Below the pieces are notes generated by a model, which did not search any database, was not told the origin of the DNA, and saw only the letters and a program-made list of their open reading frames with translations. Source: a virus. Taken from it: DNA of 64,000 bases. The stretch spans positions 32,001 through 96,000 of IMG/VR virus record IMGVR_UViG_3300032282_006516. One strand, 5' to 3'. The translations under genes and the position numbers were made by a program. Shown in pieces: positions 11,661 through 32,777 of this stretch (positions are counted from its first letter, which is position 1; the number at the start of each line of letters is the position of its first letter).

Positions 11661-12344
11661 CTACTCCTTGCCCTGAGCGAGAAAGCGCCGGAGAAGGCCC
11701 CTGGCCCGCTCCTTCAGTTCAGCAACTGTGCCGTCGTTCAGCAACACCGCGTCAAAAAGACTCGGGTCGATGCTTTCTTGCTCGGTTTCGCTCGCATGTT
11801 GCCCCGCCACGCCGCGGAGCCCCGCAGACGGTCGCTCCAAGCGCCAAACAATGCCGCCACCGCGTCGAATCGCATCGACTTCATTCTTGAAACGAACGTC
11901 CGGAATGATGACGCCCTTCGGCGCCAGCCACGCCGGCTGGATACCCGTCTGGGCGGTGTAGTTCAGCGTCCGCGCGGTGCCTGCAGAATCTAGGAGCGTG
12001 GTTGCCGCGCGCAGAGCGTAGTCAATCCACACGTTCTCGTAGCACGCCCTTCCCCACTCTGTACCGAGCTGCTGGAGGGCGTACCGCGGTGTCAGAAAGC
12101 CCTGGAAGTCATGCGCGCCACTGCCTTCCGGTGCTCGACTCCACTCCGATGGATAGCGCGTATCGGGCGCGTTTCGCTTCTCACTCGGCCCCCAAAGCTG
12201 TTCGTCGGTAAAGGCGAACACATCTTTGCAGAACCGCTTGAGCGGGTCGGCCAGGGAGACTTTCGTAAAACCGAAGTCTTTGACCAGGGCGTCCGCTGCG
12301 GTGTCCTTGCCGCTTCCGGCGAGGCCGCACAGACCCAAAATCAC
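11661..12344 (-). CDS. Deoxynucleoside monophosphate kinase
   Basis: ILGLCGLAGSGKDT P-loop, SLADPLK, TPRYALQQLGTEWGR, IIPDVRFKNE, HASE, LLNDGT. Confidence 0.92.
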   Translation of the reverse strand: MILGLCGLAGSGKDTAADALVKDFGFTKVSLADPLKRFCKDVFAFTDEQLWGPSEKRNAPDTRYPSEWSRAPEGSGAHDFQGFLTPRYALQQLGTEWGRACYENVWIDYALRAATTLLDSAGTARTLNYTAQTGIQPAWLAPKGVIIPDVRFKNEVDAIRRGGGIVWRLERPSAGLRGVAGQHASETEQESIDPSLFDAVLLNDGTVAELKERARGLLRRFLAQGKE

Positions 12345-12649
12345 AGGAGCACCTCGATACCGGCCACCCGCGCACGGCGAAGCAGCACGTCCCGACGACC
12401 GCCCTGACGCCACACGCGGCCGTCCGAGATGTCGAGGAAATGCGTACCGTCCTGCGTGCGCAGGCGCCCCGTCAACGGACCTTCGGACACCGGCTGTTCA
12501 GCCGGAGCGGTCACAACAATCTGCGAACCCAGAAGGTTCAGCATGTCCTGCGCGGCCGTTTGAATTGCAATCTTAACGTACGCTTCCAGGTCATCGACGA
12601 AACGAAGAACGTGCGGCGCGATGGACTGGTTCAGTTGCTCGTGTGTCAT
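12341..12649 (-). CDS. Hypothetical protein
   Basis: 102 aa, coupled on both sides. Confidence 0.65.
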   Translation of the reverse strand: MTHEQLNQSIAPHVLRFVDDLEAYVKIAIQTAAQDMLNLLGSQIVVTAPAEQPVSEGPLTGRLRTQDGTHFLDISDGRVWRQGGRRDVLLRRARVAGIEVLL

Positions 12650-14004
12650 GTGAACTCCTTGTGGTCGGAAGATTGCAGCCGGGACACGATAATGCCCACG
12701 CGCTCAAGAAGTTCAAGCGATTCTTTTCGCCGGTAATCTTGGGCGTACCAAACGCGCACGACTCCACCGAGATTGATGAGACGTTTCGCACACATCAAGC
12801 AGGGCAGGTGCGTGCAGAAAACAATCTTCGGCGTGTCGCGGGGCACGTCGCAGTTGATGACCGCGTTCTCTTCTGCGTGAAGGCAGTTTTGCGCTACCAT
12901 GCCTGCATTCCCGGCGGCGTACCACCCCGACCGGGTCTGAAGGTTGTACACATGGCCCGCCCACTCCTTGCGCTCGATGAGCCGGACCTTGTTCGACGCT
13001 ACCTTGAGGGGGACACTGTTCTGTCCCTGGCAGCGCGGTACAAGGTCTCGCACACGACCATCCAAAACCGCCTGCGCAAACACGGCGTCCTTCGCCAAAT
13101 GGCCGAGGACCTGCGCCGGCATAAGAGCGCCTCGCGGCTGCGCCTCCCCATCGAAGACCTCGTGCGCCGCTACAACGCCGGAGAATCCGCCAACGGCCTC
13201 GCGGCTGTATTCCACGTAAGCCGTGGTGCTATCGAACGCCGTCTTCAAGAGGCGGGAGTTCTCGACATCGAGCGGCGAACTACGCGCCGCTCCCGACGGG
13301 CGCGCGAAGTCGATGGCCGAGTGCGCCGGGCCTTGAACGCCGAGAAGCGGGGGACGCTCCAGGGCAGCGGGGAGGCTTGGTTGGTCGAAGAGACACAGAA
13401 AGCCGGACTCTTCGTAGAACCTCAGAAAGCAGTCGGAGGATACAACCTCGACCTCCTGGTCGAGCACACCGTCGCCGTGGAACTGATGACGGGCGCCAGC
13501 ATGCCGTACCAACCGGCCCGCTATGGCGAGCGACTCAAATACCTGCTCGACAGGCACACGCTTTTGGTCGTGTGGAGCTGCGGACGACACACCCTCGTCC
13601 CAGCAGGCGTGCAAAAGCTCGTCGCCCTCTTGAAGAGTCTCTGCAGCAACCCAACCCCGCCCAAGCACCAGTACTGGGTGATTCGGGGTGACGGTGAAGT
13701 CGTCGTACGCGGTGACCAGCCGTACGACCGTGCCCTCGTACCAGCGGCGGTACGCGCGTTCGACCGACAGTGCCGTCGTAAGCGTACCTGACACAAAACA
13801 GCCACAGTTTCCTACCGCGGCTTCACCGTGCACGTCGCAGTCGTTGTCGCACCCTGCCGCGTTGCCGTTGTACCCGACAGCCAGCACCTTTCTGAAATCG
13901 GGCGTAACAATCGCGCAACCCACACGCAGGCGACGACACGTCGAACGCTCGCTCATGCTGGAAGCGAGACGCATGTAAATGTCTTGAAACGAAGGACGCA
14001 TCAA
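12646..14004 (-). CDS. dCMP deaminase interrupted by an intein (147-aa mature enzyme)
   Basis: RSTCRRLRVGCAIV, VGYNG, HAEENAV and THLPCLMCAK zinc motifs; 305-aa insert immediately before CLHAE. Confidence 0.92.
   Translation of the reverse strand: MMRPSFQDIYMRLASSMSERSTCRRLRVGCAIVTPDFRKVLAVGYNGNAAGCDNDCDVHGEAAVGNCGCFVSGTLTTALSVERAYRRWYEGTVVRLVTAYDDFTVTPNHPVLVLGRGWVAAETLQEGDELLHACWDEGVSSAAPHDQKRVPVEQVFESLAIAGRLVRHAGARHQFHGDGVLDQEVEVVSSDCFLRFYEESGFLCLFDQPSLPAALERPPLLGVQGPAHSAIDFARPSGAARSSPLDVENSRLLKTAFDSTTAYVEYSREAVGGFSGVVAAHEVFDGEAQPRGALMPAQVLGHLAKDAVFAQAVLDGRVRDLVPRCQGQNSVPLKVASNKVRLIERKEWAGHVYNLQTRSGWYAAGNAGMVAQNCLHAEENAVINCDVPRDTPKIVFCTHLPCLMCAKRLINLGGVVRVWYAQDYRRKESLELLERVGIIVSRLQSSDHKEFT
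12886..13800 (-). mobile_element. Intein, 305 aa (Cys1 ... Gln-Asn | Cys+1)
   Basis: Block A CFVSGT, block B TVTPNHPVL, WVAAETLQEGDEL, block F HVYNLQT, C-terminal VAQN followed by Cys. Confidence 0.92.
12952..13791 (+). CDS. Antisense-encoded HTH-HTH-DUF559/Vsr-like PD-(D/E)xK endonuclease nested inside the intein
   Basis: Two HTH repeats (DLVRRYLEGDTVLSLAARYKVSHTTIQNRL; DLVRRYNAGESANGLAAVFHVSRGAIERRL) and GEAWL...PQKAVGGYNLDLLVEHTVAVEL; ATG 12952 with GAAGG upstream. Confidence 0.78.
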   Translation: MARPLLALDEPDLVRRYLEGDTVLSLAARYKVSHTTIQNRLRKHGVLRQMAEDLRRHKSASRLRLPIEDLVRRYNAGESANGLAAVFHVSRGAIERRLQEAGVLDIERRTTRRSRRAREVDGRVRRALNAEKRGTLQGSGEAWLVEETQKAGLFVEPQKAVGGYNLDLLVEHTVAVELMTGASMPYQPARYGERLKYLLDRHTLLVVWSCGRHTLVPAGVQKLVALLKSLCSNPTPPKHQYWVIRGDGEVVVRGDQPYDRALVPAAVRAFDRQCRRKRT

Positions 14005-14309
14005 AGGGCTCCTCGGGCGGCTAAAACTTCGCGCATCACATCCCGTGCGTAGTCACAAGCGCGGCGCTGTACGCGCCACGCAAGCGGGCTACCGGCGTAG
14101 GACACCCCAAAAACTTCGGGGCGTGTGAACTCCTTGTCGTAGTGCTGCGGTCCGTCTTCACGCGACGGCCACACCACACGCAGCGTGAACTCCCCGTCCT
14201 TGCCGGGAAGAAAGTCTACGGACGTAGCGTAGGTTGCGCGCCGGATAGGGTCGGCCCACCCACGCAGCTGCCCGCAAAGAGTTTGAAGAAGTACCGTACC
14301 TCGGTCCAT
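14001..14309 (-). CDS. Hypothetical protein
   Basis: 102 aa; stop overlaps the deaminase start. Confidence 0.65.
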   Translation of the reverse strand: MDRGTVLLQTLCGQLRGWADPIRRATYATSVDFLPGKDGEFTLRVVWPSREDGPQHYDKEFTRPEVFGVSYAGSPLAWRVQRRACDYARDVMREVLAARGAL

Positions 14310-14318
14310 ACTGCCTCC

Positions 14319-14771
14319 GTGGCGCGCGACCTACGGTACATCACGAGCGAACGCTTTATCCACGATGACCTCGCGGCACGCGCGGCTGACATGGCGAAGG
14401 AAGCTCTACAGCAGTGGCGAAAAGAACGCCGCATCGAGAGCTTCGCCATCAGCTGGCCCAGCGAGCACATCGTTGGAGACGACGGTTCGACCATCACGCA
14501 CGCGGTGCTTATGCCGCTGCGCGGTGACTTAGACGAAGGGGCGAAGCACGCAGCGCTGACGCGGATGGTCGAGAAGACCAAAGCGTACGGACTCGTCGTG
14601 ATTGAGCGTCGTCAGAACGAAATCCGCGTGCTCTTTGAAACGCACCATGGCGCCCGAGCCTGGATTACTCCGCTCAAGCGCCATGGGGACCTCCTTGTTC
14701 CTGGGAGGACGCAGGTGCGCGATAACGCCGAGTGTCTGGGATTTCTCTGGCGTCCGCAGCTCGTCAGCTAG
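14319..14771 (+). CDS. Hypothetical protein (start uncertain, 14319 or 14391)
   Basis: Protein-like composition; converges tail-to-tail on the next gene. Confidence 0.6.
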   Translation: MARDLRYITSERFIHDDLAARAADMAKEALQQWRKERRIESFAISWPSEHIVGDDGSTITHAVLMPLRGDLDEGAKHAALTRMVEKTKAYGLVVIERRQNEIRVLFETHHGARAWITPLKRHGDLLVPGRTQVRDNAECLGFLWRPQLVS

Positions 14772-31652: not shown

Positions 31653-32777
31653 CTAGTACTGCTGGACGTTCGGGAACTTCAGGCCGGCGTCGACCTTGTT
31701 GTTCGGAGCGCCGAGCGCGTCCTCGGAGACCGGGACGAAGTTCGAGATGAGCGCGTCCGCGTTCGTCGTCGGGTTCGCGTCCGCCGAGTACAGCTCCAGC
31801 TTACGCACCGCGGCGATGTTGATGATCGCCATCGCGATGTCTTCCCAAGCCTGGAAGGTGATGACGTTCGCGATCTTGTCGATGTAGAACTTGGTGTTGT
31901 TCAGGACGTAGAACTTCCCGAAGAACTCCGGCTTGGTGAAGCAGTACACGTTGCCCGGACGGAGGATGTCCGACTTCACGGTACGGATGTACGAACGCCC
32001 GAAGAGCGTGTTGTACTTGTAGCCGTCGACGGCCGTCTCCGACTGGAGCCGGTCACCGAAGTCCTCAAGCGTCCACTGAAGGATGTCGTCCCAGTCGACC
32101 TCCGTCATGAGGAGCCGCTCCGAACGAAGGCGGTTGCCGTCGAGGAGCTTGAAGAGGTTGATGACGTCCGGGCGCTGAATCGGGCGCACCGTCGCGTCGT
32201 TCGAGGTCGCCGTACGAGCCAGCTCACCCTTGCGGATGGAGAACTCGACCACGCCCGCGCCCTGGATCTGCGAAGCGTTGAGCGGCGTAGCCACGCCACC
32301 GTTCGCCTGAAGCTGAAGCGCCTGGCAGGCGGCCTCGATGTTGATCGTGAACTCGCGGTCCTCGACCTCCTGGATGTCCTTCACCGAGTTCTCCTCGATG
32401 ATCTTGGTGATGGGCATCTCGTAGGCGAGAAGCTCCTGCTCCGTCTTCTGGAAGATTTCCGACGAGACGGTGTAGAAGCCGACCTCGGCCTTGGCGCCGC
32501 GAATCATGCGCGCCGTGGGCGAACCACGAAACGTCATGGTGAGCGCGCGGCTCTGCGGCTCGACGTCAACGATCTTGACCAGCGTGTCGTGGTTGACCGA
32601 GCGCTGGCAGTCGCTGCGCGTCACCTGCTCCGGGGGGAGCACCTTACGCGCGTACGACACCTCACGGAGACGGTCGCGGATGTAGGACCCGCCGTACTCC
32701 GCCATCTTCTCCTTGCCCTCACCCGAGCCGAGCTTCTGCGTGAAAAGCTCGTTCAGAACGCGTGCCGGAACACTCAT
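31653..32777 (-). CDS. Major capsid protein (HK97-type fold), 374 aa
   Basis: YIRDRLRE..RKVLPP, IIEENSVKDIQEVEDREF, AWEDIAMAIIN; follows decoration, scaffold and protease genes; strongly biased codons. Confidence 0.88.
   Translation of the reverse strand: MSVPARVLNELFTQKLGSGEGKEKMAEYGGSYIRDRLREVSYARKVLPPEQVTRSDCQRSVNHDTLVKIVDVEPQSRALTMTFRGSPTARMIRGAKAEVGFYTVSSEIFQKTEQELLAYEMPITKIIEENSVKDIQEVEDREFTINIEAACQALQLQANGGVATPLNASQIQGAGVVEFSIRKGELARTATSNDATVRPIQRPDVINLFKLLDGNRLRSERLLMTEVDWDDILQWTLEDFGDRLQSETAVDGYKYNTLFGRSYIRTVKSDILRPGNVYCFTKPEFFGKFYVLNNTKFYIDKIANVITFQAWEDIAMAIINIAAVRKLELYSADANPTTNADALISNFVPVSEDALGAPNNKVDAGLKFPNVQQY

Follow-up and report, generated by a model that had tools for sequence, protein, structure and literature searches.

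A probably mobile intein in a phage dCMP deaminase gene with a putative homing endonuclease gene on the opposite strand

Introduction

The locus described here raises the question of how an intein can be mobilised when its own reading frame holds no recognisable endonuclease, and whether a single segment of DNA can encode a splicing protein on one strand and a nuclease on the other. The window, by which we mean the whole 64,000-nucleotide stretch that was analysed (positions 32,001 to 96,000 of IMG/VR virus record IMGVR_UViG_3300032282_006516), carries a dCMP deaminase gene interrupted by an intein. An earlier note, made from the letters of this DNA, had drawn attention to a long open reading frame (ORF) on the strand opposite to that intein, and had guessed that inteins of this layout may already have been reported, which is indeed the case. 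Anti-sense VSR-like endonuclease genes in the inteins of actinophage MuF-like minor-capsid proteins were described by Gosselin, Arsenault and Gogarten (bioRxiv 10.1101/2025.01.02.630785), who found the in-frame middle of such inteins to be without recognisable structure and who linked the VSR-like type to I-Bth0305I. Their supplement lists, under the label 'VSR -1 ORF', the minor-capsid inteins of Fosterous gp12, Vivi2 gp14, Angelicage, Affeca and Sejanus. Deaminases, start codons, promoters and a per-frame test of selection are absent from that preprint, and our search of the literature on dCMP deaminase inteins and on opposite-strand or antisense genes in inteins turned up nothing relevant besides it. 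The layout itself is already published, and only the host gene and some of the details are new.

Results

The deaminase gene contains a contiguous class-1 intein

The features of the deaminase strand are as follows, with AF2 standing for the structure model and pLDDT for its per-residue confidence.

12646-14004, minus strand: intein-interrupted dCMP deaminase gene, a single continuous ORF of 452 aa
13801-14004, minus strand: N-extein of the deaminase, ending ...GNCG
12886-13800, minus strand: class-1 intein of 305 aa, CFVSG...MVAQN followed by Cys+1, with boundaries read from the sequence
13603-13800, minus strand: N-terminal splicing region, intein residues 1-66, blocks A and B; AF2 pLDDT 85-95; intein frame selected
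13009-13431, minus strand: intein linker, residues 124-264, antisense read-through of the nuclease gene; pLDDT 31-44, no secondary structure
12886-13005, minus strand: C-terminal splicing region, residues 266-305, blocks F and G, GHVYNLQT...AQN; AF2 pLDDT 84-95; intein frame selected
12646-12885 (stop included), minus strand: C-extein of the deaminase, beginning CLHAEE...

The deaminase ORF matches Pfam dCMP_cyt_deam_1 in two stretches (E 3.5e-15) as well as phrog_174 (2e-32), and both zinc motifs, HAE and PCxxC, are intact in the C-extein. A further match, to phrog_15127 'head protein', lies in the intein part only. The intein is placed in frame within a conserved host motif, between ...GNCG and CLHAEE..., with Cys1 encoded by 13798-13800 and Asn305 by 12886-12888. 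The class-1 terminal residues are present (Cys1, Asn305 and Cys+1), as is the TxxH of block B (T38-P-N-H41, within TPNHPVL), and C1, T38, H41 and N305 are invariant when the window intein is aligned with 19 related inteins. The match to Pfam Intein_splicing is weak (E 5.8e-4). The penultimate residue is Gln304 and not the His of block G; the equivalent position in the related inteins holds H, Q, K, R, S or D. Inteins that lack the penultimate His can still splice, and its absence is no bar to class-1 membership.

In the AF2 model of the intein, residues 1-66 and 266-305 are folded confidently as a splicing domain, residues 79-121 have moderate structure and residues 124-264 are disordered. The splicing fold is thereby formed by the two ends of the intein only, comprising about 120 N-terminal and 40 C-terminal residues, and the middle 140 residues are predicted to be a disordered linker. 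The earlier note had described normal splicing blocks at both ends and a middle that resembles antisense sequence with neither a LAGLIDADG nor an HNH motif. Both descriptions are borne out, apart from the missing block G His: the two ends fold confidently and evolve under selection on the intein frame, and the middle has the low pLDDT given above and no Pfam match at E<=1. An endonuclease domain of the LAGLIDADG or HNH kind in the intein frame was likewise considered, and the Pfam search returned no match. A fractured gene with a split intein is ruled out, as one unbroken 452-aa ORF crosses the element.

Adjoining the deaminase gene, at 11661-12413 on the minus strand, is a gene for a P-loop protein (GLCGLAGSGKDT) that resembles deoxynucleotide monophosphate kinase by sequence. 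If this kinase reading holds, the neighbourhood would be a nucleotide-metabolism module. On the other side, at 14142-14771 on the plus strand, a 209-aa ORF with a protein-like C-terminal half stands among minus-strand genes and overlaps part of the minus-strand ORF at 14001-14309.

The opposite strand carries a codon-aligned ORF whose start signals lie in block F

Features of the plus strand are listed below.

12938-12942 and 12952-12954, plus strand: ribosome-binding site GAAGG and start codon ATG, antisense of intein block F (N-L-Q-T and His)
12952-13791, plus strand: putative antisense homing-endonuclease gene of 279 aa, ATG at 12952, TGA at 13789-13791, codon-aligned with the intein
12979-13251, plus strand: two helix-turn-helix (HTH) DNA-binding domains, nuclease residues 10-43 and 67-100, from Pfam HTH_58, PHROG, 2lvs and AF2
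13357-13650, plus strand: Vsr/DUF559-fold nuclease core, about residues 136-233, from structural and profile matches
13648-13788, plus strand: C-terminal tail, nuclease residues 233-279, encoded opposite intein blocks A-B, in which HQYWVIRG mirrors TPNHPVL

The plus-strand ORF starts 66 nt inside the C-terminal end of the intein and stops 9 nt from its N-terminal end, with codon position 3 of the plus frame opposite position 1 of the minus frame. All coordinates of intein, ORF and junctions in the earlier note, together with these offsets and the codon-aligned register, are correct to the base. The stop codon is the antisense of the intein Ser4 codon TCA. The start ATG is the reverse complement of the His codon in block F (GHVYNLQT); likewise, the GAAGG that precedes it by nine bases lies antisense to N-L-Q. 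Related loci (described below) share this arrangement, and in 25 of 27 the nuclease starts exactly opposite the block F His. A ribosome-binding site at the same spacing was sought at 11 distinct related loci and reads GGAGG in five, GGAAG or AAAGG in two and only TAAG in one, with no clear site in the remaining three. At two loci (L021:508-1464 and L022:2408-3346) the block F His is replaced (GFVYN and SHLVYN) and the nuclease start lies one or two codons downstream, a shift that fits a start codon tied to the block F His codon. A scan of 12300-14300 for sigma-70-type promoters found none, including upstream of the plus-strand ORF, and the four matches in the window to a candidate phage promoter motif, AA-N19-ATAAG, all lie away from the element.

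The plus-strand protein resembles HTH-bearing nucleases of the Vsr/DUF559 fold

The earlier note had read two HTH repeats and a DUF559/Vsr-like nuclease in the plus-strand protein, and structural matches to all three were found. The HTH domains match Pfam HTH_58 (3.9e-5) and PHROG DNA-binding families (4e-8), and have AF2 pLDDT values of 82-87. A nuclease profile built from 12 family members and searched against the PDB matches the HTH pair of 2lvs (E 8e-8), DUF559 protein 3hrl (E 0.0024) and Vsr 1cw0 (E 0.1); the same profile gave no match to the I-Bth0305I structure 3r3p at E<=10. Foldseek with the whole nuclease model against the PDB returned nothing at E<=0.001, while domain-level comparison with VIA-align gave as its three best matches Vsr 1cw0 (Z 9.7, rmsd 2.9, 111 residues), the I-Bth0305I catalytic domain 3r3p (Z 9.3) and DUF559 3hrl (Z 9.0). 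Overall pLDDT of the nuclease model is 70, rising to 85-91 over residues 141-180 of a core that the model places at residues 139-231; confidence is low in the tail, where pLDDT is 34-52 from residue 251 and below 50 throughout 256-279, and where the intein frame is the one selected. Pfam MTES_1575 matches 8 of 20 nuclease family members (best E 7e-8) and the window protein only weakly (E 0.09).

The fold is that of Vsr/DUF559, and E141 (13372-13374), D167 (13450-13452) and E177 (13480-13482) are invariant in all 20 aligned nuclease members. However, the window nuclease reads ELMTGAS after the Glu, against EADGGQH in 3hrl, and its subgroup has neither the Asp nor the His of the DUF559/Vsr motif. 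Because these two residues are missing, the catalytic competence of the window nuclease is uncertain. Two further features set the deaminase subgroup (the window, L016, L017 and L018) apart in the nuclease alignment (A4). Its members have ELMT(C/G) after the catalytic Glu where others have GG.WH or E.K, and in columns 100-165 they are without a helical module, R.RSEA...RM...ER...A..A.RG, that is present between the second HTH and the core in all other members.

Related loci share the nested arrangement

Relatives were sought by scanning viral contigs, metagenome contigs and cultured phage records, which together with Virus Rctr197k gave 27 distinct loci. At all 27 distinct loci readable as DNA, one of which has 37% G+C, a class-1 intein contains the nuclease homologue on its antisense strand, in one and the same register. 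The scans used a motif, GQYWVIRG, that mirrors intein block B (TPNHPVL) on the opposite strand, so that free-standing relatives could not surface in this sample. Host genes at these loci are dCMP deaminase, MuF-like head protein, DNA polymerase (L004) and a portal fusion (L007). Within the deaminase, the intein occupies one of two sites: site a, at the HAE motif, in the window, L016 and L017, and site b, at the PCxxC motif, in L001 and L018. Specifically, Rctr197k (L001) has a homologous intein in the same enzyme inside PCxxC (HLPCVA|C...N|CAKRLINLG), and it has a homologous antisense ORF too.

The intein-bearing deaminase of Rctr197k (KX853510.1; L001:616-2025) carries the annotation 'putative head morphogenesis protein', probably because its intein resembles those of MuF-like head proteins. 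Antisense nuclease ORFs are also seen in the head-protein inteins of Gordonia phage Fosterous (L030), Pseudomonas phage vB_Pae_BR313c (L031) and Escherichia phage fEg-Eco06, a Kagunavirus (L032). The antisense ORF is unannotated in all four cultured or deposited records inspected, that is, these three phages and Rctr197k.

The window nuclease is homologous to published inteins of Gordonia phages: a tblastn search with it matched Fosterous, Affeca, Vivi2, Angelicage and Sejanus, with 33% identity over 253 aa (E 7e-14) to the 'VSR -1 ORF' of Fosterous gp12. These are phages listed in the preprint under that label, and the window element therefore belongs to the same kind. With a nuclease profile stripped of the tail, 1,638 representative clusters were found at E<=1e-30 among 1.84 billion proteins. 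Among the best 150 of these 1,638, a tail of the Y(W/R)VIRG type that mirrors block B is present in all but about six HTH-repeat proteins (107 were recognised by regular expression and the remainder, variant forms, by eye). This suggests, as far as protein sequence can tell, that nesting in inteins may be the rule for the nuclease family. Scanning bacterial and archaeal genomes with the nuclease alignment gave no relative; since the mirror motif of the intein was among the patterns searched, absence from those genomes is not implied.

The antisense frame is open beyond chance in AT-rich DNA

Openness of the antisense frame in the window alone is no more than chance gives, and the reality of the gene rests on the related loci. 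The window is GC-rich, so an open antisense frame proves nothing by itself. For example, none of 148 extein codons is TTA, CTA or TCA, the codons that are stops on the other strand, and shadow ORFs of 248 and 276 aa occur within 2 kb of the element. The locus with 37% G+C (L008) is more telling. Its intein frame would be expected to hold 20.9 stop-making codons, yet it has just two, which lie at the ends (P 1e-7). Its nuclease frame has none in 288 codons, for which the chance, by arithmetic on the same codon usage, is about 3e-9. TTA, CTA and TCA are avoided in each of the two frames. Stops in homologous inteins were also looked for, and the antisense frame has none at the related loci between the conserved start and the intein N-terminal region.

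Selection passes from one frame to the other along the element

We compared substitutions in the two frames. Of 1422 codons that changed in the middle of the five deaminase inteins, 436 did so synonymously as read in the nuclease frame and 147 as read in the intein frame, while in the two splicing regions the balance is 92 (nuclease) versus 166 (intein) and 31 versus 70. This result is unchanged by which of the two proteins guides the alignment. Among 10 phylogenetically independent pairs, differences in the middle are more frequent at the nuclease wobble position than at its first position in all 10 (792 vs 586 differences, sign test p 0.001), and at the ends the reverse holds in nine of the 10 (416 vs 301, p 0.011). 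A sliding profile gives the following dominant frames, to which the zone of dual constraint is added.

Intein residues 305-276: intein frame dominant
Intein residues 275-126: nuclease frame dominant
Intein residues 125-66: neither frame dominant
Intein residues 65-1: intein frame dominant
13426-13605, both strands: dual-constraint zone of about 60 codons, nuclease residues 159-218 opposite intein residues 125-66

The selected frame is thus that of the nuclease in the middle and that of the intein at either end. Purifying selection confined to the intein frame, a possibility that had been raised at the outset, is not what is seen. In the dual-constraint zone the two outer codon positions have near-equal substitution rates, and at the shared middle position 11-14% of comparisons differ in four of the six profile windows that cover the zone and 22-24% in the other two. 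AF2 predicts structure on both strands here, with the nuclease catalytic core opposite a part of the intein that is predicted to be structured. The proposal that one segment of DNA encodes both a splicing precursor and an independent nuclease, with both frames kept open, gains support from this frame-specific selection and from the nesting at 27 of 27 loci.

Insertion sites sort the nucleases and not the splicing domains

In Rctr197k (L001) and L018 the insertion site used in the window is empty and contiguous, and in each deaminase genome the intein fills one of the two sites and leaves the other empty. Nucleases that share an insertion site are 50-58% identical, versus 38-48% across sites, whereas the splicing domains are not sorted by site. 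The clustering of nucleases by site and the single empty site per genome fit a site-specific homing enzyme, in a sample that is small.

Discussion

Our reading, which we consider probable, is that the window carries a mobile class-1 intein in a phage dCMP deaminase with a homing-endonuclease gene on the opposite strand, codon-aligned over almost the whole intein. The antisense gene most likely specifies a separately translated homing endonuclease that would mobilise the intein. The deaminase strand would be translated through the element, and the nuclease would be made from an antisense transcript during infection. If a co-infecting phage brings a deaminase allele that has no intein, the nuclease may bind and cut that allele at ...GNCG|CLHAEE..., after which repair would copy the intein and the nuclease gene into the cut allele. 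The intein would splice out and restore the deaminase.

Three other explanations have to be weighed. One is that the antisense gene is real and selected, but is no longer a homing nuclease for the intein, having become a DNA-binding regulator or an inactivated nuclease with some other role. The lack of the Vsr/DUF559 catalytic Asp and His in the window subgroup speaks for this, as does a nuclease-family match (MTES_1575) that is weak where the HTH matches are clear. Nonetheless we regard it as unlikely, given that E141, D167 and E177 do not vary in the 20 aligned members, that no part of the protein is more conserved or more confidently folded than the core, and that nucleases cluster by insertion site with one site empty per genome, as for a site-specific mobile element.

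The remaining two would deny coding function to one strand or the other, and both are far less probable. That the deaminase is a dead gene disrupted by the nuclease gene, its minus frame open by chance and its intein not splicing, would agree with the missing penultimate His and with G+C-rich DNA that keeps frames open. The enzyme may also be dispensable: dCMP deaminase is not known to be essential in any phage, so splicing is not forced by necessity. Yet the splicing blocks evolve under intein-frame selection with C1, T38, H41 and N305 unchanged, and the host frame is open also in AT-rich relatives and in head and polymerase genes, leaving this explanation very improbable. The least credible of the three, by a little, is that the plus-strand ORF is a shadow ORF that encodes nothing and is open from G+C-rich codon usage only. 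It draws on the absence of TTA, CTA and TCA from the extein codons, on the shadow ORFs of similar length nearby and on the negative promoter scan. Against it, the same frame is open at 37% G+C, selection acts on the plus frame's own codon positions, no stops are scattered through the plus frame of related inteins, and it is the plus frame that matches HTH and Vsr-fold families whereas the intein middle matches none.

The origin and further effects of the homing-endonuclease gene are less certain. The earlier note proposed a separate, inverted insertion of the nuclease gene, an idea that sits awkwardly with start signals and a tail built from splicing blocks. It is conceivable, and we would put it somewhat short of an even chance, that the nuclease family is obligately nested in inteins and descends from one old union rather than from repeated recent invasions by free-standing nuclease genes. 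This idea of obligate nesting is based on the ribosome-binding site and start being hard-wired into the antisense of block F, on the tail being the antisense of block B, and on some 60 codons that encode part of the intein fold and the Vsr core at once. Antisense RNA regulation of the deaminase is speculation, and no promoter was found for it in the scanned region.

The window element is like the 'VSR -1 ORF' inteins in having a contiguous class-1 intein, an antisense ORF in the -1 register, a Vsr-like fold, a structureless in-frame middle and sequence homology. In contrast to those inteins, which are all in minor-capsid proteins of actinophages, its host gene is a dCMP deaminase with two insertion sites and its phage is a large uncultured non-actinophage. 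Set against them, the window ORF extends across both splicing regions, and its start signals are supplied by block F. What is new is the deaminase host gene with its two insertion sites, the start codon and ribosome-binding site drawn from block F, the dual-frame zone of about 60 codons, and a spread well beyond actinophages.

There are also resemblances to other systems. EDxHD homing endonucleases such as I-Bth0305I (Taylor et al. 2011, PMC3239194) likewise combine tandem N-terminal HTH/NUMOD-type motifs with a C-terminal Vsr-fold nuclease, in keeping with the VIA-align match to 3r3p. However, I-Bth0305I is encoded on the sense strand of a group I intron whereas the window nuclease is antisense in an intein. 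As regards the EDxHD motif, the window protein has the three invariant acidic residues; where DUF559 has E.DG..H it reads ELMTGAS, and the His and second Asp were not located. In fractured genes, a free-standing gene for a Vsr-like or GIY-YIG nuclease lies between the halves of a split intein (Dassa et al. 2009, PMC2677866). The window shares with them a phage gene of nucleotide metabolism or replication and a separate Vsr-like nuclease gene in the intein locus; it differs in having an unbroken intein frame with the nuclease encoded on the opposite strand, where their host gene is two ORFs with a split intein. Finally, anti-sense LAGLIDADG endonuclease inteins have been noted for Synechocystis DnaX (Gorbalenya 1998, as cited in bioRxiv 10.1101/2025.01.02.630785). 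As far as that citation goes, the DnaX intein resembles the window in having an endonuclease gene opposite a contiguous intein and differs in nuclease family.

These results have a practical side. Gene callers and curators miss antisense genes of this kind, and a shared intein misleads family labels, as in the Rctr197k deaminase that is called a head morphogenesis protein. In the cultured carriers, expression, cutting and homing are all open to direct test. For the biology of these phages, the layout is extended from actinophage head genes to a nucleotide-metabolism enzyme, and to phages of E. coli, Pseudomonas, Vibrio and Idiomarinaceae hosts, with the nuclease gene unannotated in every record inspected. 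Independent DNA here confirms that a stretch of about 840 bases can code for a protein on each of its strands, with selection passing between the frames along the element.
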